In this document: one piece after another, positions 36,847 to 61,374 of the stretch | How the letters are laid out: the number at the start of each line of letters is the position of its first letter | Position numbering within the stretch: the first letter of the stretch is position 1 | Assembly (NCBI GenBank): GCA_963664815.2 | Contig: CAXXHB010000003.1 | Span: 3,744,001 to 3,808,000, forward strand | DNA length: 64,000 nucleotides | DNA from: Spirochaetota bacterium | Lineage (GTDB): Bacteria > Spirochaetota > UBA4802 > UBA5550 | Direction of reading: 5' to 3' | Translations under genes and position numbers: made by a program | The notes under the pieces: generated by a model | The model's database searches: none | What the model saw: only the letters and a program-made list of their open reading frames with translations | What the model was told of the DNA's origin: nothing

Positions 36847-38226
36847 TTATATCCCTTCTCCTGTAAAAACACCGTTATCCCATATTCCCTGCTTAATAAT
36901 TTTACCATCAGGCGCGTATTCAATCCCTTTGCCATGCATTTTATGATCTTTCCATCCACCCACATATCGTCCTCCGTCATTCCAGAAATAAGTACCTTCC
37001 CCGTCCTGAAGATTTTTTTTCCATTCCCCGATATACTTATCACCGGATTTCCATATATATGTTCCACTGCCATCCTTCATGTCGTTTTTATAATCCCCAG
37101 AATAAGTTTCTCCATTTGTGGCAAAGTATTCTCCATGTCCGTCCATAAGATCCTTTTTAAACTGGCCTACATATTTATCTCCGTTGCCCCAGATGAAGGT
37201 TGCTTTTCCCTCGCGGAATCCTTTCACAAAATCGCCGGTGTACTGGTTTCCGTTTGTCCATGTATATATCCCCTTACCCTCCATATATCCATTCTCCCAG
37301 TCGCCTGAATAACCTGATCCATTATAATACTTCAGCGAACCCTTTCCATGCCTCATTCCGTTCTTAAATTCACCACTGTACACGTTGCCATTTGTCCAGT
37401 AAAACTCACCTTTACCATGCATCCTGTTTCCTTTATAGTCTCCTATATAACGGTTGCCGTTGGGGTATAAAAATGTATTACTGCCGCGTTTAATCCCAGG
37501 AATAAGACTGTACACCGGCATTCCCCTGTACACTTTGCTTATCAGCATCCGTGTTCCACCTATCATACAGCATCTTGTTTCGTCCGCAGATGGCATAACA
37601 ACTTCTATCGCTGCCATGAGACCCGCTATTTCCACAAAGAACTTATCCCCAATCTTCATATCACTGCCTTTTATAAAAACTTCTCCGGAAGATACATTCA
37701 CTTTTGTCACCTTCCCCGTTTCAACTTTATCTTCATCAGTAAGCCCTGGTAGCGCGATTATATCAACAAAAAGATAATCAAAGAACTCCCCCTGTTCGAT
37801 TGAACCATCTGCGTATCTGTACACTCCTTCACCCCACGGGACATTAAGTTTAAAATCTCCTGTATACAAATCACCGTTGTTGAAACTAAGAGAACCATAA
37901 CCAACACGATTATCATTAACCCAGTCCCCTTCATATTTCTCTCCCCAATTTTTGTAATGCATGACCCCCCGGCCATTGCGTATATTATTTTTATTTTCAC
38001 CCTCATAACAGTCGCCGTTTTTATAGACAAAAACACCCTTCCCATTGTCGCAGTCACCCTCAGCACATCCGCCTGTGTAGGTTGATACAGGCGACAGATA
38101 CTTTTCACATCCCGATAATTCAGGTTTCATTTCTGCAGGCTTCACATCGGGAACTGTAGTTGGAGCGCTGCTGCACCCGGCCAGAACAATTAAAATTGAG
38201 ACGATAATTACATTTTTTCTTATCAT
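36847..38226 (-). CDS. MORN-repeat lipoprotein
   Basis: Lipobox LAGC; two blocks of Y.G.W/F.....G.G repeats separated by a ~100-aa non-repeat domain. Confidence 0.9.
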   Translation of the reverse strand: MIRKNVIIVSILIVLAGCSSAPTTVPDVKPAEMKPELSGCEKYLSPVSTYTGGCAEGDCDNGKGVFVYKNGDCYEGENKNNIRNGRGVMHYKNWGEKYEGDWVNDNRVGYGSLSFNNGDLYTGDFKLNVPWGEGVYRYADGSIEQGEFFDYLFVDIIALPGLTDEDKVETGKVTKVNVSSGEVFIKGSDMKIGDKFFVEIAGLMAAIEVVMPSADETRCCMIGGTRMLISKVYRGMPVYSLIPGIKRGSNTFLYPNGNRYIGDYKGNRMHGKGEFYWTNGNVYSGEFKNGMRHGKGSLKYYNGSGYSGDWENGYMEGKGIYTWTNGNQYTGDFVKGFREGKATFIWGNGDKYVGQFKKDLMDGHGEYFATNGETYSGDYKNDMKDGSGTYIWKSGDKYIGEWKKNLQDGEGTYFWNDGGRYVGGWKDHKMHGKGIEYAPDGKIIKQGIWDNGVFTGEGI

Positions 38227-38396: not shown

Positions 38397-39404
38397 TCAG
38401 ACATGTATAGCTTTACCAGCCTGAAGTTCTATATATTTATTGCCGAAAGATTCTTTAAATTTTTTTATTGTCCAGTCAGAGCTGTCATGTGGAGAGAGCG
38501 AAACTATCTGCGGATTTATTCTTTTAATTGAATTTAACGCCTGGTTTACATCACTCTCCCTCATCCCCCGCAATGGTCTTCTGTCAACTCCGACAATATT
38601 CTGCATATTTAAGGGCCCTATCATAACTCTTCCACCCTTTACCGGAAGATGAAGACCGCCTATAATACCATAAATAGGTTCATCGAAAATATCCGTGACT
38701 CTATTTATTATATTATCAATACCCTGGTGTCCACATCCTATTATCAGCACTATCCCCTTCCCTTTCACGTTGATTGCAAGACTCTGTTCAACGATATATC
38801 CAATAAGGAAAAGCGATCTGGGATATATACCGATTGAGGCTATTCCTTTATCAATTATTTCCGGATCATTGATAACTTTTACATAGGGACCGGGATTGTT
38901 TTCCGAAGGTGCAATATTCCCCGGAGAATATACCGGGATTCCGGCAAGTTCAACTTTTCCGGCCGAGAGACTGAACCGGCACTTCCTCTCTTCATATTTT
39001 CCCCCGACATGATCATTATGTATATGACTGATAAAAACTGCATCCAGATCTCCCGGCGATAATCCGGTTTGTTTAAGATTAATAAGCAACGGTGACGGGT
39101 GCTCTTTCTTTTTATTCAATCCAAGATCAAAAAGTATTCTGCGGTTCCCCGCTTCAACAATATACGCAACACCCGCCTCGGTTCTGTAACTGTCATCTAT
39201 TGCATAATAATCAACCAGTGGTATAATAGTAAGTGAATCAACATGACCAATATCTGCGAGTTTTCGGATATTCAATACAGCAAGTTGTTTGGCGGCTTTA
39301 GCTGATCCTTTTTTCAACCTGACAATCATTATGAGTACAAACATGATGAAGAGGGAAAATATAGAAATTACAGCAGAAACAACAGCAAAAATGACATTAT
39401 TCAT
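38397..39404 (-). CDS. MBL-fold metallo-hydrolase with N-terminal membrane anchor
   Basis: ILFDLG, SHIHNDHVGG (HxHxDH), IIGCGHQG, GGLHL. Confidence 0.88.
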   Translation of the reverse strand: MNNVIFAVVSAVISIFSLFIMFVLIMIVRLKKGSAKAAKQLAVLNIRKLADIGHVDSLTIIPLVDYYAIDDSYRTEAGVAYIVEAGNRRILFDLGLNKKKEHPSPLLINLKQTGLSPGDLDAVFISHIHNDHVGGKYEERKCRFSLSAGKVELAGIPVYSPGNIAPSENNPGPYVKVINDPEIIDKGIASIGIYPRSLFLIGYIVEQSLAINVKGKGIVLIIGCGHQGIDNIINRVTDIFDEPIYGIIGGLHLPVKGGRVMIGPLNMQNIVGVDRRPLRGMRESDVNQALNSIKRINPQIVSLSPHDSSDWTIKKFKESFGNKYIELQAGKAIHV

Positions 39405-39450
39405 TACCGGATCTCCAATAGAATATTTCAGTAAACTGCCGTTATTATCC

Positions 39451-40128
39451 TTATAAGTTAAAATGAAGTTTTACATTGAAGATAAGTGAAATCAATTTAG
39501 TCATGAAATAGAATATTAAAAAAATAAGTATCACCATAAGAGTGGTATTTGCTTTATAAAGAAATTTTTCTGAAAAAGATTTTTTATATCTGTGAAGAAT
39601 GGTTGCCTCAAGAATAAGATATAAAGCAAGCCCAAAAGCTCCTGAAAATACAAAAAGAGCCTTTATCGCAGGAGTCATCACTGTAAATATATTCAAATCC
39701 GCAAAAAGCTTAAATCCGATAAACCACCAGATTATCATTCCAGGATTGGTGACTGCAATCGTAAATCCTGTAAGGAAGGAGAGCCTTTTCCCGTAATTAA
39801 TACGTTTCTCCTTATGACGCATATAATCTCTCTCCTGGTAGGATTTATACATCAGGTATGAAAGAACTAATATACCCATGCAGTAAATAACAACCTGGAA
39901 ATCTTTATGAAGGAGAAAATCTCCGAATCCGAATAGTGCAAGCAATCCATATAAAAGGTCCGACAAAGCAGAACCCATAGCAGTTGCAATGGCAGGTTTC
40001 TTGTGACCATTGATAGTTTTCTTTATAACTTCAAGCTGAACTGCGCCTACAGGAATAGATGTTAAAAAACCAAGAACTGTCCCGAATAATACAGTTGCAA
40101 TCAGTTTAAAAATGTAAATACAATCCAT
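39451..40128 (-). CDS. LysE family translocator
   Basis: IPVGAV, G.ALSD..YG, FLTGF.IAVTNP..I.WW; ATG at 40128 preferred over TTG at 40167. Confidence 0.8.
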   Translation of the reverse strand: MDCIYIFKLIATVLFGTVLGFLTSIPVGAVQLEVIKKTINGHKKPAIATAMGSALSDLLYGLLALFGFGDFLLHKDFQVVIYCMGILVLSYLMYKSYQERDYMRHKEKRINYGKRLSFLTGFTIAVTNPGMIIWWFIGFKLFADLNIFTVMTPAIKALFVFSGAFGLALYLILEATILHRYKKSFSEKFLYKANTTLMVILIFLIFYFMTKLISLIFNVKLHFNL

Positions 40129-40177
40129 TATATAACCCGAAAAATTTATATATACGGCCAGAGACAAAAGTCATAAC

Positions 40178-40221
40178 CATTTCATCTGCCAACTGTAATA
40201 CATCTCCCGGCAGATGAAATG
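40178..40221. promoter_or_regulatory. 13-bp perfect inverted repeat upstream of the LysE gene
   Basis: CATTTCATCTGCC-18 nt-GGCAGATGAAATG. Confidence 0.5.
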
Positions 40222-40423
40222 CTGTTACAGATAAAAGATCCAACTTGAAATAAATATCAAATTATTAACCATATTACAACCATTAAATAAAAATGTATAT
40301 TATTTTTCAGTATTAATTTCCAAACATATATTTCACTTTAAATAAGCATTTATTATACAGTAAAACTTGCCGGTAATATAAGATACCGGAATGTATAATT
40401 TTTTATCTCCCGGGTCTGTTAAC

Positions 40424-43400
40424 TTATCTCTGTTCAACCGGTGCTACAAGCTCTTCAATTACCCCGAGAATTTCATCTTTAATCTCTTTGTATACATGGT
40501 CAACCACAGAAACCTCAAGAATCGGTATATCCTCAATATAGATTCTTCCGGTATTGGCATCAAGTGTTATATAATCGCCCTCATGAAGTTGAACCGAACC
40601 GAGGATTATCACATCATCAGGGCGATTCTCCCATAAAACATCAGTAACGCACGGTTTCCCCTCCCCTATTGCGACAAGGGCTGCATGGGAAGTTACTCCT
40701 CCCTCCTTGGATATATACCCGTAAAATCTGTTTTCTGCCATTATCACTTTAGGCGGCACATTGCTTTCTGTAATAAAAATCAGATTCCCGTCAAACTTTG
40801 AAATATTGTTCTGATCCTTTACAATTTTTCCTCTTACCGCACCCCCGTTTACCGGCTTCCCCTGTATAACTACCGGCGCATCATGAAGCAACCTGCTGTC
40901 CAGATAAGTTCCGATAATTTTTTTATTAAGCCCGAAAGCTGTTCTTTTTATAAGCTTGTACTTGGTATAGATATTCTCTTTATAAAATTCATAGCTGTTT
41001 ATAATTTTAGCAATCGGTGATTGTTTCAGAATCCTCGACTGAACAATATATGTCATTCCCTCTCTTATTGCAAATTCAATATCGGTTGGATATCTCTGTA
41101 TCCTTTCATCATAATGTTTGAATTTTTTAAAACTTTCAAAGTGTTCCGGGTGGAGCCTTATAAAGTCCTCAGTGTTCCCCGGAGTAATGGCACCATCTGC
41201 AATCACGTTGCCAAAAAAACCATCACTGAACTCTATCTGTTCCTCGTAAGCGCTCCCTATTTTGCCTGTATTAGGATTTCGTGTAAAGAAAACACCTGAA
41301 CAGTCATCAACAGAGAGAACCGGTACGCATTCCTGAATAAGGCATCCGGTCTGGAACTGTTCCGGTATACCCAGGTGAACAATCTGTTTCTGTACAACAT
41401 CACTTTCAAATGATCGGAACACAGCCTCAACCGAGTTATAAAGCTGTTCATGCGGATCATCTGGTATTCTGACATTTGAACTGTATTCCCTGATTAGATC
41501 GGACATTGCTTCTGCAACATCAATCATTATGAACATTCCTTCTTTAAAAACTGTCACATAACTGTCAAAACCGGTATCCCTTATCAATCTTTCAGTATCA
41601 AGCCCCATCACACTCTTCGCGTAACTCAGCATAAATGTAATATATGCCTGATACGCCCTTGCAGGTTCCTTCAGTTTCTTTGACCATTTGTCTGCAATAG
41701 ATTTATTAATCCCGATATGGCTGATAGTGTCCAGAATCCCTGGCATGGAAACAACACTTCCCGACCTTGCCATGAGAAGAAGAAGATTGGATGGATCCCC
41801 CAGCTTTTTACCGGTTCTGCGCTGAAGGTTCTCTGCAATTCCGAAAATCTTCTTTCTAAGATCATCAAGCGAGAAGTCACCCCTCTTTATATAATGCCAT
41901 GTAAGCGTGCTGAACCCGTAACCCTTGGGTACATCAAACTTCGGAAGTTGAGAGGACTGAATGATTCTGGAATTTCTTATCTGAGAAAACCCCTTACCAC
42001 CCATGAATTCCGGGCTTTCCAGAGCCTCTCTCGACTCACTGCTGTCAATGCCGAAGGTATACACAAAATCATCAAGTTCAAGTTCATGTTTTGCCTTGAT
42101 GGTATCAAGAACTTTCTGAAACGGTTCCGCGGCTTTTCTTGCCTCGTAGTTTTTCAGACTATTAATGAGATTGCCGAGCAAGTGAGTTGTTTTTTCCCTG
42201 ATTATATTATTGAGAATTGCAGTAAGCGCAGGTGCGTTGTCCCTGTTTACAAGACATTCTGAATAGAGCTCCTTTATCAGCAGGAAGTTATTCTCCAGTT
42301 CAGAATTCATGGCCTCTACAATACTTGGTATATGAGCTATTCGGTCAGGCCTTTTGTCAAGCTGCTGAAGTAACCGTTCAATCAGGAAAGCAAACCTGCC
42401 AAGGATCTTTGTTCCGTGCCCCACAGACCTTGCGCAGAATGCAAGATCCACGAGAACATTCAGAGATTCAACATATACCTCGTCAGTTATAACACGGAAT
42501 TTTATGTTTACAATATTTGAATAATATATAAATGCAATCTGTTCAAGAATTGAATCGGCAGTAATAAGTCTGAAAAGGATTTCACCCTTTTTATTTATTT
42601 TACTCTGTGCTATCTCCTCAATAAGTTTTTTGAGATTATACCTGAGTTTTCCCAGTGCGATATCTGTCCATTCCTGATTCCTGACGTTTTCACGTGTTTT
42701 ACTTATTGAACCGATAGATTTCTCATATGATTTTAAAGCAGTAATTTCATCAGTAATTAATCCTGTAAGATTTGATTCTATAACATTCAGGAATTCATCC
42801 CTCGAGAGATTATTTTTGTTATCACCCCTGTCTGACCAGGCGGTTTTAAGTCTGTTTTTTAAAGTGAGAAGATCCCGGAACACTTCCGCTTCAAGAAGAT
42901 CGTCCTTTTCCTCCCTGGTCACATTATAGACAGTGCTCCCCTCAATCATTGCAGATGTCTTGTCTGAATGAAGGAATTTCTCAAACTTTTCTATCTTGGT
43001 GATCACCTTTTCAGAAAGATGCTGATGTGTAAGCTTTCTTATATCCGCAGCAATCGAACCAAATGTCTGGTCGTACCTGTACTCTGCCTCAAAGTCGTGT
43101 GCTATATCACGCAGTTCTGTTATATCAATTCCATATATATTAAATTTCGGTATATGCCTTATCAGCTCATATATAAGAGAATAAAGTTCCTCAAAATTAC
43201 TCCCATCATAGCATTCAAGAAACTCAATCACATGAATTTCAAGTTCTCCAAGAGACTCTGTTCTTGAGCCTTTGAGGCTCCCTCTGGTTTTAATTTCGTA
43301 CCTGATAAAAAGAACTATATCAACAAGTTTCTCCTTAATGATCCTGTTCTCCTTTTCACGGCACAAACCATTCAGCAATCTGCTCACATCATCGACAAGT

Positions 43401-43435
43401 TTTATCTCACCATATTTCCCTGAAACAATATCCAT
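40424..43435 (-). CDS. PPDK-type dikinase: ~450-aa helical domain + ATP-grasp + phospho-His swivel domain, no pyruvate-binding barrel; candidate glucan-water-dikinase-like enzyme
   Basis: MGGKG, ARSGSVVSMPGILDT, SGVFFTRNPNTG, DIEF, IVQSR, GGVTSHAALVA; the protein ends shortly after the His domain. Confidence 0.85.
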   Translation of the reverse strand: MDIVSGKYGEIKLVDDVSRLLNGLCREKENRIIKEKLVDIVLFIRYEIKTRGSLKGSRTESLGELEIHVIEFLECYDGSNFEELYSLIYELIRHIPKFNIYGIDITELRDIAHDFEAEYRYDQTFGSIAADIRKLTHQHLSEKVITKIEKFEKFLHSDKTSAMIEGSTVYNVTREEKDDLLEAEVFRDLLTLKNRLKTAWSDRGDNKNNLSRDEFLNVIESNLTGLITDEITALKSYEKSIGSISKTRENVRNQEWTDIALGKLRYNLKKLIEEIAQSKINKKGEILFRLITADSILEQIAFIYYSNIVNIKFRVITDEVYVESLNVLVDLAFCARSVGHGTKILGRFAFLIERLLQQLDKRPDRIAHIPSIVEAMNSELENNFLLIKELYSECLVNRDNAPALTAILNNIIREKTTHLLGNLINSLKNYEARKAAEPFQKVLDTIKAKHELELDDFVYTFGIDSSESREALESPEFMGGKGFSQIRNSRIIQSSQLPKFDVPKGYGFSTLTWHYIKRGDFSLDDLRKKIFGIAENLQRRTGKKLGDPSNLLLLMARSGSVVSMPGILDTISHIGINKSIADKWSKKLKEPARAYQAYITFMLSYAKSVMGLDTERLIRDTGFDSYVTVFKEGMFIMIDVAEAMSDLIREYSSNVRIPDDPHEQLYNSVEAVFRSFESDVVQKQIVHLGIPEQFQTGCLIQECVPVLSVDDCSGVFFTRNPNTGKIGSAYEEQIEFSDGFFGNVIADGAITPGNTEDFIRLHPEHFESFKKFKHYDERIQRYPTDIEFAIREGMTYIVQSRILKQSPIAKIINSYEFYKENIYTKYKLIKRTAFGLNKKIIGTYLDSRLLHDAPVVIQGKPVNGGAVRGKIVKDQNNISKFDGNLIFITESNVPPKVIMAENRFYGYISKEGGVTSHAALVAIGEGKPCVTDVLWENRPDDVIILGSVQLHEGDYITLDANTGRIYIEDIPILEVSVVDHVYKEIKDEILGVIEELVAPVEQR

Positions 43436-43652
43436 ATACTACCCCGCATAATAGCTTCCATGTATTGAAATCATATATTTATCAAGAGTCAATAAAAATT
43501 ACCTGTGATACTGTATTATAACAGGGCTGTCTTTAAAATTATATAAAAAAAGTGAATGCGATAATTCCTGCGGTAAAAAAAATAAATGTTGAAAAATGTT
43601 TATATATTATAATATATATATTGTCTGCTGAATATGTTTAAGAAAGAGAATT

Positions 43653-44813
43653 ATGGATAAGATTAAAATTATTGAATACATACTCAGTCCTTATGAAAAC
43701 CTGGCCAGAAAAAATGAGATTGAGTATATTGAGTTTTTAAACGGTGGTGAAAACAATAAAAGCCTTTTTAAAAAAGCATATAATAATGATTTCCCGTATC
43801 TTGCTTATGAAGTTCTTAACAGCAATCCTGAATTCCAGAACCGTGGTCATGACTCTCCCGTACATCTTGAACTTACTTCAAAATATGAAACCAAGATATT
43901 CTGCCATATATATCCACTCAGGAGAGAAAGTAAAGTTGTTGATTTACTTCTCATTGAAACGAAGGGAGCTATAAGTGAAGAATGTGAAATCAGCATTAAT
44001 TTTATTTCAGCCGTTATTGTAAATTTCTTCAATAATATATTCGTCCTGGATACGACGACAGAAAATGCAGACAAATATAAAAAGGAACTCAGCAATATAA
44101 GAGACATACAGGTCAAACTTTTTCCAAAATTTGACGACATCAAGGAACTTGATATAAGATCTGCTTATCTACCTGCAGAATTTATGTCCGGAACTTTTAT
44201 TGATGGTATATTTCTTGATAAATCAACTTACCAGCTGACGGCATGTGATGTATCAGAATATGGGCAGGTTTCATCATTTATTGGATCTGCGATCAGAACA
44301 ATAATACGTAATGACGCTCAGCAGAAAAAAGTTCCTTCAGTCATGATTAATTCCATAATGAGTAAAATCAAAAACATGATGTCCGGAACATCCGGAAGTA
44401 ATAATATTTTTCTTACAATATATCAGTTAAATATTAAAACCGGCAAGGTTATAATATCGTCCTATGGAAATATAACCACACTCTTTTATACAAAGAAGAG
44501 GAATGGGCTGATTGACCTTGCATCTACAGAGACAGGAAAACTTTTTGCAAACAGAAATTTCATTAAGGATATGTCAATAAACCTGGAACCAGGTGATGCA
44601 CTGCTTTATTATACACGAGGCGTTAAAAAAGCAAAAGCGGAAAACTCTGAAACAGAATACGGACTGGATAATTTAAAAAATGAAATGAAATCGAATATCG
44701 AATCGGGATCGCTTGAGATAGTTCATTCAATTATAGAATCAATATATCAATTTACTGATTATGCACAGATCGATGAAGATATAATTCTTATAGCCATAAA
44801 GAAAAATATTTAA
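43653..44813 (+). CDS. PP2C/SpoIIE-like protein with degenerate metal-binding residues
   Basis: IQ.KLFP, YLPAEFMSGTFID, CDVSEYG, LEPGDALLYYTRGV, YGLD.L, DEDIILI. Confidence 0.8.
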   Translation: MDKIKIIEYILSPYENLARKNEIEYIEFLNGGENNKSLFKKAYNNDFPYLAYEVLNSNPEFQNRGHDSPVHLELTSKYETKIFCHIYPLRRESKVVDLLLIETKGAISEECEISINFISAVIVNFFNNIFVLDTTTENADKYKKELSNIRDIQVKLFPKFDDIKELDIRSAYLPAEFMSGTFIDGIFLDKSTYQLTACDVSEYGQVSSFIGSAIRTIIRNDAQQKKVPSVMINSIMSKIKNMMSGTSGSNNIFLTIYQLNIKTGKVIISSYGNITTLFYTKKRNGLIDLASTETGKLFANRNFIKDMSINLEPGDALLYYTRGVKKAKAENSETEYGLDNLKNEMKSNIESGSLEIVHSIIESIYQFTDYAQIDEDIILIAIKKNI

Positions 44814-44977: not shown

Positions 44978-46192
44978 TTACAACTTCGAGTATATCTCGA
45001 CCATCCGCTCAACTGCGCCTTCCCAGGTAAACATTTTTTCAACTCTCTCAATTCCCGCGCGTGAAAATCTTTTCTGCAAACCATTGTTATTAAGAAGCAT
45101 ATCAATCGCATCAGCAAGCGCCAGATGATCGCGTGCAGGTACTACAACTCCTGCATCCCCAACAACTTCAGGGAGTGCTCCTCCATTGCTCGATATAACC
45201 GGAACACCGCAGGACATTGCCTCACCTGCCGGAAAACCGAATCCTTCATAGACAGAAGGAACAATTGCCAACGCCGATTGCGAATATAATCTGACTAGCT
45301 CATCAACAGATGCTGTTCCGGCAAAAAATATTTTATCCCTTATTCCAAGTATATCAATTACTCTGTTGGTTACTTTTCTGTGCGGAGCACCACCGTCAAC
45401 AACAACAACCCTTACATCGGACTTCATCACCGCAACGGCTTTAAGAAGATAGATAAATCCTTTCTTTCCGTCCTCGATGTTACCCACGAAAATTATATCC
45501 CTTTTATTCTTCCTGACTTTTACAGGTTTAAAGATCTCTCTGTCAATCCCGTTATATACTACGCTCTGCATTTTTAGCGGAACGCCGAAATCGCGGTTGT
45601 TCATGATCTTTGAATCTTCAGATACTGTAATAATATGATCAAGACGCTTAGAGACAATTGTCTGCATCAGCGTAGGATAAAACATTACCGCACGGAATTT
45701 TCTGTAAAAAGACTCCGATCTCTCCAGAACTGTTCTAAGGTCAACTGAAAGAGGATGATGTATTGTGGCAACAACCGGGATGCCCAGGGATTTCATAAAA
45801 AGAAGCCCGTAATTCAGTGACTGGTTATCATGTATAATATCAAAGTTATACTTCGAATGAAGTTTTCTTAAAAGAAAAAAAGCCCTGTAACCGAACGAAC
45901 TTATCTCAGGGAAAGCGCCAAATCTGCTGTTAAACCACTCATAAGCGTTAATCGGATGGAATATATCAAAAGGGGTTTCTCTGCTGATTATATTTAATCC
46001 CTTTTTAACATAATACTCATTATTCGTGATTACATGAGTGATAACGCCCTTCATAACATCAGGATAAGGAGGTCCCACAACAACATGAACTTCATGCCCC
46101 TGGCGCACCAGTTCTTCTGCCACGTATTTGAGGTATATTCCCTGCCCTCCGGAATAGGGATTACCCCTGTAGCATAAAAGACATATTTTCAA
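44978..46192 (-). CDS. Glycosyltransferase family 4
   Basis: YRGNPYSGGQGIY, HDNQSL.YG, ATIHHP, PSVYEGFGFPAGEAMSCG; TTG start. Confidence 0.92.
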   Translation of the reverse strand: MKICLLCYRGNPYSGGQGIYLKYVAEELVRQGHEVHVVVGPPYPDVMKGVITHVITNNEYYVKKGLNIISRETPFDIFHPINAYEWFNSRFGAFPEISSFGYRAFFLLRKLHSKYNFDIIHDNQSLNYGLLFMKSLGIPVVATIHHPLSVDLRTVLERSESFYRKFRAVMFYPTLMQTIVSKRLDHIITVSEDSKIMNNRDFGVPLKMQSVVYNGIDREIFKPVKVRKNKRDIIFVGNIEDGKKGFIYLLKAVAVMKSDVRVVVVDGGAPHRKVTNRVIDILGIRDKIFFAGTASVDELVRLYSQSALAIVPSVYEGFGFPAGEAMSCGVPVISSNGGALPEVVGDAGVVVPARDHLALADAIDMLLNNNGLQKRFSRAGIERVEKMFTWEGAVERMVEIYSKL

Positions 46193-46194
46193 AA

Positions 46195-46836
46195 TCAGTT
46201 ACCGCCAGTCATATTGAGTCTTTTATACAGATCACCCATGGTGATAATCTTTTCAGGATCCAGTTTCTTCACAATTTTTGCAGGGTTACCTATCACTACA
46301 ACATTCGGGGGAATATCTCTTCGAACTACTGATCCTGCTCCAACTATTGAATTCTCACCTATGTGCACCCCCTTGCATATAATTGCAGAATCACCGATCC
46401 ACACTCCCTTTTCAAGTACAACAGCTGCATTTTTCCCGGGGGATGCTGTCCTGTCATTTATATCATGCCAGTCAGCATCCATGATATAGCAGTAGTTAGC
46501 AAGCATACAGTCATCACTGATGACTATTTCATTGGCACTGCTTATCCGGACACCGTTCATTATCAGCACATTATCACCGATTCGAATATGCCCCTCATGA
46601 CCGCCATAACAGATTGAAGTAAAGTTCGTCTTATATCCGTTGGCTCCGACTATAGTTACGTTTTTCCCAAGATGTATATTGGGTCCGTAAACAATAACAT
46701 TCCAGATGCCCCAGACCATCGGTCTTCCGGCGATTGACGCAAATTTCCTGCTGAATGAATACTTATAAATAAGCTCACTTTTTATCATAAACCATAATCT
46801 GGTAAAATATGATGCTTTATCATTTTCATTAAACAT
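46195..46836 (-). CDS. Hexapeptide-repeat acyltransferase (maltose O-acetyltransferase-like)
   Basis: IRIGDNV, DADWH, VWIG...ICKGVHIGENSIVGAGSVV..DIP....GNPA. Confidence 0.9.
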   Translation of the reverse strand: MFNENDKASYFTRLWFMIKSELIYKYSFSRKFASIAGRPMVWGIWNVIVYGPNIHLGKNVTIVGANGYKTNFTSICYGGHEGHIRIGDNVLIMNGVRISSANEIVISDDCMLANYCYIMDADWHDINDRTASPGKNAAVVLEKGVWIGDSAIICKGVHIGENSIVGAGSVVRRDIPPNVVVIGNPAKIVKKLDPEKIITMGDLYKRLNMTGGN

Positions 46837-47029
46837 TTTTTTCTCTGCAAATTCATTTTACATTTTTTATAATAGACAAATGCATTGAAATATTCTTTTA
46901 TTAAAATGTAAACAATTTTTACTGATGTCATACGATCATTATAATTAAGCTATTTTAATAAATTTTACCCATTCCATAAGATCAGCGAATTGTGTTCTAG
47001 GTAAACATAAAAAACATAATGGATGTAAT

Positions 47030-47779
47030 ATGAAACTCATTCTTTTAATAATTTTATTCTTTATAGCTGGCACAGGCATTTTTCAACCTGTGTCCACACA
47101 ACCCGAATGCCTGATGATTGAAGATTTCCAGAAATATAACGGCAAACCATTCCCTGATTGGAGCTTCCGCGAGGATTACAGCGAAGCTTCAGCTATCTAT
47201 TCAATCATAGAGGAGAACGGCAAAAAATTTTTACGGGGATCAACTGTTCATGCAAATTATCTGGTGCAACTTGCCAAGCAGGTCAACCAGCATGATGAAA
47301 CAAACCCGAATAGCATCTGCTGGGATATACATTCATTTCCATGTATCAGCTGGGAATGGCGAGTGAACATCATTCCTGATGGCGGGAATGAGAATGACGA
47401 GAGAACCAACGATTCAGCAGCCTCAATTTATGTAGTTTTTCAGAAAAGGAAAGGCGCATTCGGCGGCTGGAAATATCAGCCGGCTAACTGGCTCAAATAT
47501 GTCTGGAGTTCAACGCTGCCGGTCGGCACAGTAATTTCACGGAAATTTTCGAAATTCGGTATATCCCTCTATGATGGCAGGTATATTGTTGTCGCTTCAG
47601 GGAATAAAAACCTTGGTAAATGGATTACTTTCAGAAGGAATGTTTTGGCTGATTATGAAGCTTATTTCGGAGAAAAGCCAAGGTTTAACCCGATAGTCGT
47701 TGGAATCCTTACAGATTCAAACAGTACGGGGACCAAGGCAGAGTCTGATTATGACAACATTACCGCATCTGCTCTCTAG
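47030..47779 (+). CDS. DUF3047 family secreted protein
   Basis: Signal peptide; P.ISWEWRV...P.GG.E....NDSAASIYVVF, LKYVWSS.LPVG, W..F.RNV..DY...FG, ILTDS.ST. Confidence 0.85.
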   Translation: MKLILLIILFFIAGTGIFQPVSTQPECLMIEDFQKYNGKPFPDWSFREDYSEASAIYSIIEENGKKFLRGSTVHANYLVQLAKQVNQHDETNPNSICWDIHSFPCISWEWRVNIIPDGGNENDERTNDSAASIYVVFQKRKGAFGGWKYQPANWLKYVWSSTLPVGTVISRKFSKFGISLYDGRYIVVASGNKNLGKWITFRRNVLADYEAYFGEKPRFNPIVVGILTDSNSTGTKAESDYDNITASAL

Positions 47780-48420
47780 GGGATAACTATTTTCTCTCCT
47801 AAAAATTTCGGTTGTTCCATTATAATTTTGACGTCTATAAACGCCTTTAACCTTGCAAAAACCTCCCTTAGTCTTACTATTACATCTGAAGGTTCTTCAT
47901 TGTCCTGCGCATTGAATCCTGTAACTTCAATACCATGCACCCTGCCGATATACACAGCCCTTTCATTGTGGAACCTCTGGGAAATAACCGTAACAGACTC
48001 CTGCCCGAATATTTCTCTTGCCCTGACTATAGAATCAAGCGTTCTGAAGCCTGCGTAATCGAGATAAATACTCTCCACAGCCACTCCTCTTTCCTTTAAT
48101 CCGGACATCATGGCGCGAGGCTCATTATAGCTCAATTCACTATTATCTCCACTTGCTATAATATATTTAATCTTTCCGGCATGATAAAGCATTGCAGCTG
48201 CATCAAGCCTTCCGCTGAAATAGGGATTTATTCCGCCACTTACTTTATACTTGCTTGTCCCGAGGAGAAGACCGCATTTATTATCGGGAAGCTTGTTCCA
48301 CTCGTCATAAACATATGGCATTGAAAACGAACTTATATACCTGTCTATCATCATAACAGAGATTATGAATAAAACGGACAGGGAAACTAAAATCACCAGT
48401 ATTTTGTATCTTCTCTTCAT
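47776..48420 (-). CDS. sanA: SanA/YdcF (DUF218) family protein
   Basis: LLLGTSKY, NPYF..RL.AA..LY, SGDN...YNEP..M, DYAGFRTLDSIVRA, SQRFHNERA; ATG at 48420 follows the argH stop. Confidence 0.88.
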   Translation of the reverse strand: MKRRYKILVILVSLSVLFIISVMMIDRYISSFSMPYVYDEWNKLPDNKCGLLLGTSKYKVSGGINPYFSGRLDAAAMLYHAGKIKYIIASGDNSELSYNEPRAMMSGLKERGVAVESIYLDYAGFRTLDSIVRAREIFGQESVTVISQRFHNERAVYIGRVHGIEVTGFNAQDNEEPSDVIVRLREVFARLKAFIDVKIIMEQPKFLGEKIVIP

Positions 48421-48421
48421 G

Positions 48422-49816
48422 TTAAAGATCACCGACTTTACTTTTCAAAATTTTAATCTGGCTCATTATCTCCGTTTTCGACGTGCTCCCTGCCGAAAGT
48501 TTTCTCTCTGCAGCATCAGCCGGATCGAGTATCCGGATTATTTCATCATCAAATACCGGTGAAAATTTCTTCAGTTCATCAAGCGTAAGTTTGAAGAAAT
48601 TTTTATTCTCTGTTTCACAGTACCTTACAATATTGCCGGATATTTCGTGACACTCCCGGAAGGGGAGACCTTTTTTAACAAGATAATCGGCAAGATCGGT
48701 AGCCGTGGAATAATTGCTGTAAACTCCCTGCCTCATACGCTCGCTGTTTACCGTAATTCCGCTGATCATCTCTGTCATCCCCTCAAGTGCAAGAGAAATT
48801 GTATCTATGGAATCGAATAAAGGTTCTTTATCCTCCTGCATATCCCTGTTGTATGTCATAGGAAGTCCCTTAAGTATTGTCAGAAGAGAAAAGAGATTGC
48901 CATACACTCTCCCAGTCTTCCCCCTTATTAATTCAGCTACATCCGGATTTCTTTTTTGCGGCATAATCGAAGAACCAGTTGTTACAGAATCGGAAAGCTT
49001 TATAAAATTAAACTCTGAGGTTGACCATAAAATGAGTTCCTCACAGAAACGGGAGAGGTGCATTCCAAGCACTGACGCGAAATACAGAAAGTCGAGTGCG
49101 AAGTCTCTGTCGCTGACCGCATCCATGGAGTTAAAATTTATCTCATTGAAGCCAAGCTCCTTTCTTAAAAACTCCCTGTCATTTTTATAGTTGACACCTG
49201 CGAGTGCACCGCTTCCGAGCGGCAGACTTTTACATGCTTCAACGGCATTTTCAAGTCTCCTCCTGTCGCGTACAAGCTGCCAGGCGTATACAAGCATATG
49301 ATGGCTGAACCTGACAGGCTGGGCTACCTGCATATGAGTATAGCCCGGCATCAATACATCAATATGCTTCTCTGCAGTTTCAATCAGGAGTAAAATAAAC
49401 CTGTTGATGAAAAACCGTATCTGCTCAGATTCGTCAATGATAAACATTCTTACATCAACTGCAACCTGGTCATTTCTCGAACGTCCGGTATGGAGTTTCT
49501 TCCCGGCTTCTCCAATTCTTTCAGTGAGAGCGGCCTCAATATTCATATGAATATCCTCGCGCGATGCAGAAAATTCAAAAATCCCACTTTCAATTTCAGA
49601 CTTTATCTTCTCGAGCCCAGTGATAATATCATCAAGTTCTTTCTCACTGAGTATATTCATGCTGCGAAGCATCTTAGCGTGGGCAATTGAGCCTCTTATA
49701 TCCTGTCTGTAAAGTCTTGAATCGAAATGTATAGATTTTGAAATTCTTTCAGTTATATCTGATGAACCACCGGAGAACCGACCTCCCCAGAGTTTTTTTT
49801 CCTTTTTTTCATCCAT
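48422..49816 (-). CDS. argH: Argininosuccinate lyase
   Basis: LWGGRF, HTGRSRNDQV, MPGYTHMQ.AQP, GSSIMPQKRNPD, YNRDMQEDKE. Confidence 0.97.
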   Translation of the reverse strand: MDEKKEKKLWGGRFSGGSSDITERISKSIHFDSRLYRQDIRGSIAHAKMLRSMNILSEKELDDIITGLEKIKSEIESGIFEFSASREDIHMNIEAALTERIGEAGKKLHTGRSRNDQVAVDVRMFIIDESEQIRFFINRFILLLIETAEKHIDVLMPGYTHMQVAQPVRFSHHMLVYAWQLVRDRRRLENAVEACKSLPLGSGALAGVNYKNDREFLRKELGFNEINFNSMDAVSDRDFALDFLYFASVLGMHLSRFCEELILWSTSEFNFIKLSDSVTTGSSIMPQKRNPDVAELIRGKTGRVYGNLFSLLTILKGLPMTYNRDMQEDKEPLFDSIDTISLALEGMTEMISGITVNSERMRQGVYSNYSTATDLADYLVKKGLPFRECHEISGNIVRYCETENKNFFKLTLDELKKFSPVFDDEIIRILDPADAAERKLSAGSTSKTEIMSQIKILKSKVGDL

Positions 49817-61187: not shown

Positions 61188-61244
61188 TTCTTTATTATGA
61201 AGCAGTATTTTAATCATATAAATAATTATATTAACAAATATTTC

Positions 61245-61326
61245 CCGTTAGGGGTGCCACTATAAAGTCCTCGCTGAGATTATGCTCTGATGACCTGATC
61301 CGGTTAATACCGGCGGAGGGAAACGG
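61245..61326 (+). ncRNA. TPP riboswitch aptamer (orphan)
   Basis: CCGTT-AGGGGTGC...GCTGAGA...ACCTGATCCGGTTAATACCGGCGGAGGGA-AACGG matches the THI-box consensus; P1 is CCGUU/AACGG. Confidence 0.9.
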
Positions 61327-61337
61327 TTACTATAATG

Positions 61338-61374
61338 CTGTTTTGAACGTCTGTATTACAGATATTCAAAACAG
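61338..61374. terminator. Hairpin downstream of the TPP aptamer
   Basis: CTGTTTTGAA-c-GTCTG...CAGAT-a-TTCAAAACAG; weak U-tract. Confidence 0.5.

Follow-up and report, generated by a model that had tools for sequence, protein, structure and literature searches.

What does a dikinase phosphorylate when it has the catalytic module of pyruvate phosphate dikinase (PPDK) and a different domain where the pyruvate site should be? The question is raised by a gene in the genome of a Spirochaetota bacterium (GenBank assembly GCA_963664815.2), within a 64,000-nucleotide stretch of contig CAXXHB010000003.1 (positions 3,744,001 to 3,808,000, forward strand) that we refer to as the window. The gene occupies positions 40424-43435 of the window on the minus strand, and the list of open reading frames (ORFs) and their translation mark it as a genuine gene of 1003 amino acids (aa) with an ATG start. 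Swivel-histidine dikinases form a small set, comprising PPDK, phosphoenolpyruvate (PEP) synthase, the glucan dikinases GWD and PWD, rifampin phosphotransferase (RPH) and the phenol-type kinases, and each is defined by the third domain, which receives the phosphate. A preliminary description of this DNA, made from its letters, had proposed a PWD-like helical domain joined to a PPDK module and acting on glycogen or another glycan. We consider it likely that the protein, here called the dikinase, belongs instead to a rare bacterial family of three-site swivel-histidine dikinases derived from PPDK, in which the N-terminal domain (N-domain) is a new acceptor site.

A PPDK-like catalytic module without the pyruvate barrel

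The dikinase gene is laid out as follows (window positions; basis in parentheses).

40424 to 43435, minus strand: whole dikinase gene (P0001, 1003 aa), running from a helical N-domain through a PPDK-type ATP-grasp domain and a phospho-His swivel domain to a C-terminal helix (ORF list, translation, homologues, AlphaFold2 model)
42071 to 43435, minus strand: N-terminal all-alpha domain, aa 1-455, presumed to act in acceptor binding and phosphotransfer, of no known family
43097 to 43111, minus strand: RDIAH, aa 109-113, the segment that the preliminary description likened to plant PWD (translation; only R109 is invariant across the wider family)
40895 to 42070, minus strand: PPDK-type nucleotide-binding (ATP-grasp) domain and linker, aa 456-847 (PF01326; TIGR01828; PDB alignment)
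40511 to 40894, minus strand: phospho-His swivel domain, aa 848-975, with the catalytic His917 (codon 40685-40687) in GGVTSHAAL (PF00391, E 8.9e-09; 2fm4)
40424 to 40510, minus strand: C-terminal helix, aa 976-1003, and stop codon; the helix corresponds to the linker by which PPDK normally continues into its barrel (full-length model; end of the PPDK alignment)

The only credible Pfam matches were PPDK_N (PF01326) at aa 524-754 and PEP-utilizers (PF00391) at aa 897-963, the latter with 35.3 bits against a cut-off of 23.1. Among NCBIfam models, the PPDK model TIGR01828 aligned over positions 3-516 of its 865 with aa 457-981 of the dikinase (E 1.7e-64; 218.2 bits, against a curated equivalog cut-off of 843.45), whereas the PEP synthase model TIGR01418 matched far more weakly (E 4.6e-06); as judged by these profiles, the catalytic module is PPDK-like and not PEP-synthase-like. 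A search of the PDB paired aa 500-978 with residues 33-517 of PPDK 1kbl (E 5e-45), and the nuclear magnetic resonance structure of the PPDK carrier domain, 2fm4, covered aa 855-970. When the full-length AlphaFold2 (AF2) model (pLDDT 83.9, pTM 0.78) was compared with known structures by Foldseek, its C-terminal half matched PPDK 5jvl_A over 559 columns (E 1.2e-25). On these scores, the likeness to PPDK is far beyond chance.

The residues expected of a working module are in place. Translation and PDB alignment found each of the PPDK motifs listed in the preliminary description (GGKG at aa 479-482, RSG..SMPG at 557-566, DIEF at 785-788, Q.R at 799-801 and TSH at 915-917, TSHAA being translated from 40679-40693), and its coordinates for RDIAH were exact. 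In the alignment to 9pzl and 1kbl, R557, G566, D785, E787, Q799 and R801 pair with PPDK R92, G101, D321, E323, Q335 and R337; in the swivel domain, T915 and H917, the latter within GGVTSH, align with PPDK T453 and H455. Across 41 sequences, with identities as low as 33%, none of the nucleotide-site residues examined varies, and neither does the catalytic His. The preliminary description was also right that the ATP-grasp domain precedes the His domain in this protein, as the order of PPDK_N and PEP-utilizers confirms, and that the pyruvate barrel is missing.

The PPDK alignment stops at aa 978-981 of the dikinase, which correspond to PPDK residue ~518, and the protein ends ~25 residues past the swivel domain. 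These last residues form a helix (980-1002 in the full-length AF2 model) that is the least conserved part of the protein, with a mean pairwise identity of 0.32 over the 41 sequences. A profile search of the whole 5.2-Mb genome gave no match to the PEP/pyruvate barrel, PF02896, at the dikinase locus. The barrel occurs in three other ORFs, of 596, 918 and 866 aa, none of them near the dikinase and none a free-standing barrel, and the 918-aa ORF encodes a complete PPDK. Because the barrel is absent at this locus and a complete PPDK is encoded elsewhere, the dikinase is an extra, barrel-less paralogue rather than a truncated housekeeping gene. These results support a dikinase-type enzyme, with ATP-grasp and swivel His, that would be unable to use pyruvate or PEP in the manner of PPDK.

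A conserved helical domain in place of the barrel

Library scans of the dikinase with Pfam and NCBIfam assigned the N-domain to no family, and a PDB sequence search with an N-domain profile gave no match at E <= 10. The AF2 model of aa 1-460, built from 35 family sequences (pLDDT 82, pTM 0.80), has 22 helices and one 8-residue hairpin; aa 1-455 are all-helical in it, in line with the helical N-terminus of about 450 aa that the preliminary description had seen. Foldseek of this model against the PDB returned no match at E <= 0.001 (best TM 0.16), and searches of the ESM Atlas returned only the dikinase's own superfamily (best scores 0.82 and 0.77). The predicted domain was searched as one piece, and we describe it as having no convincing match to a known fold rather than as a new fold.

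Over the 41 sequences, mean pairwise identity is 0.447 in the N-domain, 0.534 in the grasp domain and 0.607 in the swivel His domain, showing that the N-domain is, by this measure of sequence, nearly as conserved as the catalytic domains. An alignment of 16 sequences, reaching down to 22% identity, has 12 invariant N-domain residues (Y85, I105, R109, R133, H137, L196, R265, L268, E298, R336, G339 and R413). The polar ones among them, five Arg, one His and one Glu, lie on six different helices, and such a set is what a site holding an anionic ligand and a phosphoryl group would be expected to show. Predicting a complex between the N-domain (aa 1-455) and the swivel domain (aa 848-975), without controls, gave run scores of 0.59, 0.00 and 0.00.

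A rare family in uncultured bacteria

A word-indexed search returned ~50 homologues at 48-88% identity from metagenome-assembled genomes (MAGs) of Spirochaetota/Leptospirales, almost all of them between 992 and 1021 aa in length, as well as five long PPDK-like proteins that match the C-terminal half only. Scanning one genome per species gave 35 loci, again mostly in Leptospirales or Spirochaetota MAGs, with seven in MAGs labelled delta proteobacterium, Deltaproteobacteria, Thermodesulfobacteriota or Proteobacteria.

A hidden Markov model (HMM) of the N-domain was made from alignment A2, 17 sequences taken from loci, and scored against 1.84 billion representatives; at that library size, a match needs about 37 bits or more to be reported by HMMER. 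It returned 21 proteins at E <= 0.001, 10 of them at E <= 1e-30, and those with names are bacterial 'PEP-utilizing enzymes', for instance from Desulfobacterales. Ten of the 21 were domain-scanned: eight have the N-domain followed by PPDK_N and then PEP-utilizers, one (P0071, 694 aa) is a fragment with PPDK_N only, and one (P0074), which has only stretch-less matches to unrelated families, looks spurious. The weakest branch (P0070, P0072 and P0073, at 22% identity) was joined by hhalign, with 73% probability and E 3.1e-05 over columns 259-439. Word-indexed searches for longer and shorter forms yielded family members and a few partial or split ORFs; the search at 240-805 aa gave six matches, of which four were partial or came from contigs shorter than 10 kb. 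Across these searches, the N-domain was found only fused ahead of a PPDK-type module.

A metagenome scan with P0059, from the P0057-P0062 branch, returned mostly main-family loci (L052-L072, ~36% identity to P0059) and six weaker ones, with L073 and L075-L078 matching the C-terminal half only and L074 matching the N-domain at 30% identity; the scan added no gene context for this distant branch. Of 401 genomes sampled from the phylum, 15 have the family; within the order, it occurs in 29 of 122 genomes, spread over 10 of the 50 genera. A search of sequencing runs listed five DNA runs, from 2 studies, and no RNA run. The family is consistent within genera, occurring in 6/7, 5/5, 6/6 and 3/3 genomes of some and in 0/17 of the largest genus of the order. 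A further phylum, the one containing locus L032, has it in 2 of 401 genomes, both of them the MAGs behind loci L032 and L030. On this sampling, the family is rare, bacterial and confined to uncultured lineages, namely some Leptospirales genera and a few Desulfobacterota-type MAGs. Literature searches, which were not exhaustive, found no paper on it. At one locus of a 'delta proteobacterium' MAG (L033:9974-12956), the dikinase is split into overlapping ORFs of 554 and 453 aa, reflecting a frameshift, a pseudogene or an assembly error.

Relation to other swivel-histidine dikinases

By descent, the dikinase is, as its profile matches indicate, a relative of PPDK (EC 2.7.9.1; TIGR01828; Clostridium symbiosum 1KBL/1DIK, Flaveria 5JVL). 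The two share ATP-grasp, linker and swivel at ~25% identity over ~520 residues, and the dikinase retains the K/R/D/E/Q/R residues of the nucleotide site, the T-S-H motif and the helix after the swivel. It nevertheless falls outside PPDK proper, as it lacks the TIM barrel PF02896, carries an extra N-terminal helical domain of 455 residues and scores 218 bits against a cut-off of 843. The truncated 'PPDK' proteins of ~530 aa (NCBIfam NF004531 / PRK05878) are likewise a barrel-less PPDK front half, and their model matches the dikinase at positions 21-465 of 534 (E 1.6e-43); they have no N-terminal helical domain, however, and the dikinase reaches only 149 bits against a cut-off of 456. To our knowledge, the function of these shorter proteins is also unsettled. 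The Desulfobacterales-type 'PEP-utilizing enzymes' of 1010-1090 aa (P0070, P0072 and P0073) have the same architecture as the dikinase and a distantly homologous second half of the N-domain, but overall identity is 22% and the first half of that domain can hardly be aligned.

RPH (RPH-Lm, 5HV1/5FBT) and the enzymes HpeHI, CreHI and PpsAB also combine an ATP-grasp domain and a swivel His with a helical, non-barrel acceptor domain. Since such acceptor domains are already known, the dikinase family is not a new category. The accessible text of two papers describes enzymes of this type as yielding AMP, phosphate and a phosphorylated small molecule (PMC4844700; PMC12167813). The dikinase differs from RPH in domain order, helical-grasp-His rather than grasp-helical-His, and in having a grasp domain of the PPDK type. 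The RPH model NF004881 (PRK06241) gives E 0.038 and 12.2 bits on the dikinase against a cut-off of 883, and a fold search with the N-domain listed no RPH chain among its top 50 matches.

Plant GWD1 (AF-Q9SAC6) and PWD (AF-Q6ZY51), EC 2.7.9.4 and 2.7.9.5, are swivel-His dikinases as well, in which a non-barrel acceptor region precedes the catalytic module. In these plant enzymes, the His domain comes before the nucleotide domain, starch is bound by CBM45 or CBM20 modules, and the phosphoryl group passes from His to C6 or C3 of glucosyl residues. The dikinase has the reverse order, grasp before His, no carbohydrate-binding module (CBM) that we could find and no sequence link to GWD/PWD in HMMER or word-indexed searches. 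On the features that were checked, it lies outside both GWD/PWD and RPH.

The proposed kinship with glucan dikinases

Does the N-domain nonetheless resemble the helical region of the plant enzymes? Of the interpretation in the preliminary description, the part that made the protein a dikinase with a non-barrel helical domain holds, by Pfam, NCBIfam, the PDB and the AF2 models, whereas a PWD/GWD-like domain and a glucan acceptor are not supported. At the sensitivity of HMMER, aa 1-450 had no significant profile similarity to GWD/PWD: none of the 21 matches of the N-domain HMM had a GWD-type layout (among the 1.84 billion representatives, whose plant coverage was not verified, and above the ~37-bit threshold), and the word-indexed searches for longer and shorter forms found no GWD/PWD-type protein. 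No carbohydrate-binding Pfam family, CBM20 included, matched aa 1-460 at E <= 10 (that Pfam holds a CBM45 model was not verified), and the model of aa 1-460 contains no beta-sandwich carbohydrate-binding module.

The preliminary description likened three N-terminal segments, in the same order, to plant PWD, and RDIAH lies in one of them. Elsewhere in the wider family, the stretch aligned with RDIAH reads REQVE, RDTSE, RDNVA, RDEIA, REVSA, REDIA and the like, with only the Arg kept; RDIAH is thus lineage-specific and a poor sign of ancient homology, where a conserved core would be expected to be shared. Given the composition of the N-domain, 0.55-1.05 exact 5-mers are expected to be shared with an unrelated stretch of 600-1150 aa, so that the RDIAH identity alone is no more than chance would give. 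An equally suggestive LRDI...RK..H occurs in the N-terminal region of P0052, a 1458-aa PPDK-like protein that we considered as a relative of the N-domain and rejected, as hhalign gave the pair a probability of 0.5%.

We therefore regard it as very improbable that the N-domain is homologous to the helical region of plant PWD/GWD and that the enzyme phosphorylates glycogen or another glucan. The dikinase chemistry is common to both, the three collinear segments put forward in the preliminary description would speak for kinship, remote homology could fall under the HMMER reporting level of ~37 bits, and the host probably makes alpha-glucan, to judge from its own genome, which has a glycogen phosphorylase above the curated cut-off and a GlgA-like region; glycogen genes are common, however, and do not discriminate between the readings. 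The opposite domain order, the PPDK-like module, the missing carbohydrate modules, the empty searches and the variable DIAH all argue the other way, as does the presence of the family in only 29 of the 122 genomes of the order. So does a preprint stating that, among eukaryotes, GWD goes with semi-crystalline starch and that organisms accumulating glycogen are not seen to have it (10.64898/2026.09.25.754361). No high-resolution structure of GWD/PWD has been solved, according to the accessible text of a 2026 review (PMC12892837). Similarly improbable is that the N-domain is a very distant bacterial relative of the plant/algal GWD/PWD acceptor region, which would make the family a prokaryotic cousin with permuted catalytic domains. 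On present evidence, the family does not bear on the origin of starch phosphorylation, for which the preliminary description had thought it relevant.

Outside the window, at G000:C3:3095431-3097026 (L041, L042), a 1668-aa open frame of the genome matches the two halves of a GlgA-like glycogen synthase, with scores under the family cut-off, and possibly encodes a large fusion protein of glucan metabolism.

Gene neighborhood

Two genes flank the dikinase in the window.

39451 to 40167, minus strand: LysE-family exporter gene, directly downstream of the dikinase (PF01810)
43653 to 44813, plus strand: SpoIIE/PP2C-like gene, 386 aa, divergently transcribed (PF07228, E 9.1e-13)

We clustered the neighborhoods of 57 loci, keeping duplicate contigs in the neighbor counts. 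Of the loci in the clade of at least 60% identity, 35 have enough sequence downstream of the dikinase, and in 31 of them the LysE gene follows on the same strand, with gaps of 29-425 bp; it follows in none of 11 more distant loci. As an obligate partner of the dikinase it was rejected: orthologues occur in 73 of the 122 genomes of the order, including two 96%-complete genomes without the dikinase (G193 and G203, 78-79% identity). Because LysE orthologues persist without the dikinase, the linkage looks like synteny passed on by descent. Divergent from the dikinase, the SpoIIE/PP2C-like gene occurs as its neighbor in 15 of 35 close loci and in none of 9 distant loci. Active PP2C/SpoIIE enzymes have DxSGHG, TDG and DD, whereas this protein reads DVSEYG, YTRG and DEDI at the motif sites, has a metal site that looks degenerate and is probably a pseudophosphatase; its first 190 residues matched no Pfam family.

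No neighbor was common to the close and distant clades among the 57 loci. The distant loci have unrelated neighbors, including PAS histidine kinase, NUDIX, PEP-mutase-family, RmuC, TerC and CobW-family genes. In a Leptospiraceae-type clade of ~50-57% identity (L024, L026 and L028), a PAS-domain histidine kinase follows the dikinase at 35-273 bp and is once fused to CheD. Among Desulfobacterota-type MAGs, the upstream neighbor is a PEP-mutase/isocitrate-lyase-family gene at L030:8890-9771 (minus strand), and three related loci have a NUDIX hydrolase upstream (L032:9023-9514, L033:9215-9700 and L034:9270-9755); these are too few independent cases to interpret. Scanning 39300-43800 for promoters and terminators did not give more matches than shuffled sequences did, and placed nothing resembling a terminator between the dikinase and LysE genes. 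We conclude that the gene context points to no pathway.

Proposed mechanism and other explanations

If the N-domain is a new acceptor site, the grasp domain would bind ATP, and H917 would take up its beta-phosphoryl group, with phosphate or water receiving the gamma-phosphate. A swing of the carrier domain would then bring the phosphoryl group to the N-domain, where the invariant R109, R133, H137, R265, E298, R336 and R413 would bind the acceptor and the incoming phosphoryl group. Because the invariant core is rich in Arg and no carbohydrate-binding module is present, we lean toward an acceptor that is probably a small anionic metabolite rather than a glucan. The reaction might equally run as phosphorylation of the acceptor or as ATP formation from a phosphorylated donor, as by PPDK in anaerobes. 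The residue equivalent to T915 is a regulatory phosphorylation site in PPDK and PEP synthase, according to the accessible text of one paper (PMC12167813), and as this Thr is kept, similar regulation is conceivable.

Several points weigh against this proposal. All of its support comes from sequence comparison and predicted models, and it assumes both that the invariant residues cluster in a pocket and that they face the swivel domain. The gene context supplies no pathway: LysE, the only tight neighbor, is limited to one clade and also occurs without the dikinase, and the more distant loci have no neighbor in common. The N-domain could be regulatory rather than catalytic, and the Arg-rich site might equally serve a phosphorylated glucan.

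What a regulatory N-domain would mean is an enzyme whose phospho-His is passed to a separate protein or trans-acting subunit, as in an Enzyme-I-like phosphorelay or a protein kinase, the N-domain serving for regulation or docking. The swivel module is indeed the one that Enzyme I uses on HPr (TIGR01417, E 2.4e-05), the regulatory Thr of PPDK is kept as T915 (PMC12167813, in its accessible text), and signalling genes adjoin the dikinase, both the PP2C-like gene of the close loci and the PAS histidine kinases directly downstream in L024, L026 and L028. We think this explanation unlikely, given that no neighbor is conserved across the family, that the PP2C-like neighbor looks catalytically degenerate and that the genome has neither a free-standing barrel nor another candidate partner; moreover, five invariant Arg together with a His and a Glu spread over six helices would suggest a site for catalysis or ligand binding more than a surface for docking. 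The same invariant core bears on a different proposal, that the enzyme inactivates an antibiotic or xenobiotic in the manner of RPH and works with the LysE-type exporter encoded downstream, since a polar, Arg-rich core would be unlike a hydrophobic drug pocket. RPH, HpeHI/CreHI and PpsAB do establish, as far as the accessible text of the two papers goes, that helical domains can be acceptor sites for small molecules (PMC4844700; PMC12167813), and the exporter gene is close by on the same strand in most close loci. Yet the RPH model scores 12 bits against its cut-off of 883, RPH structures match weakly with the ATP domain as the only clear match (5hv1, E 9.5e-06, TM 0.19), the best fold matches of the N-domain include no RPH chain, and the exporter persists where the dikinase is absent. 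Such a detoxifying kinase is, in our view, improbable. Least credible of all is a catalytically dead PPDK relic: the third PPDK active site is lost, but the nucleotide-site residues examined and the catalytic His stay invariant over the 41 sequences, length and domain order are conserved, and the genome already has an intact PPDK, so that the barrel-less copy appears to have been retained for another role.

If the N-domain is an acceptor site, as we favor, the family would add to the swivel-histidine dikinases a further acceptor domain, one organised around invariant Arg, His and Glu residues and whose fold no solved structure clearly matches. Its existence would also imply an undescribed phosphorylated metabolite or reaction in spirochaetes of anaerobic digesters and sediments. 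As the family is rare, occurs in uncultured lineages and has an uninformative context, it is valuable chiefly as a well-defined target for enzymology and structure determination.

Other features of the window

Downstream of the dikinase, at 36847-38226 (minus strand), lies a gene for a protein of 459 aa that contains nine MORN repeats (PF02493, E 2.4e-60); its position, two or three genes beyond the dikinase, is conserved in the closest relatives only (8 of 57 loci, the window included). Upstream, a block at 44978-49816 comprises genes for a GT4 glycosyltransferase, a hexapeptide acetyltransferase, a DUF3047 protein, a SanA-like DUF218 protein and argininosuccinate lyase, and is syntenic in 12-22 related loci. 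An Rfam search of 40000-44000 gave no riboswitch or other RNA family at E <= 1. A TPP riboswitch (RF00059) lies further along the window, at 61240-61338 on the plus strand, with 61.7 bits, above the gathering score.

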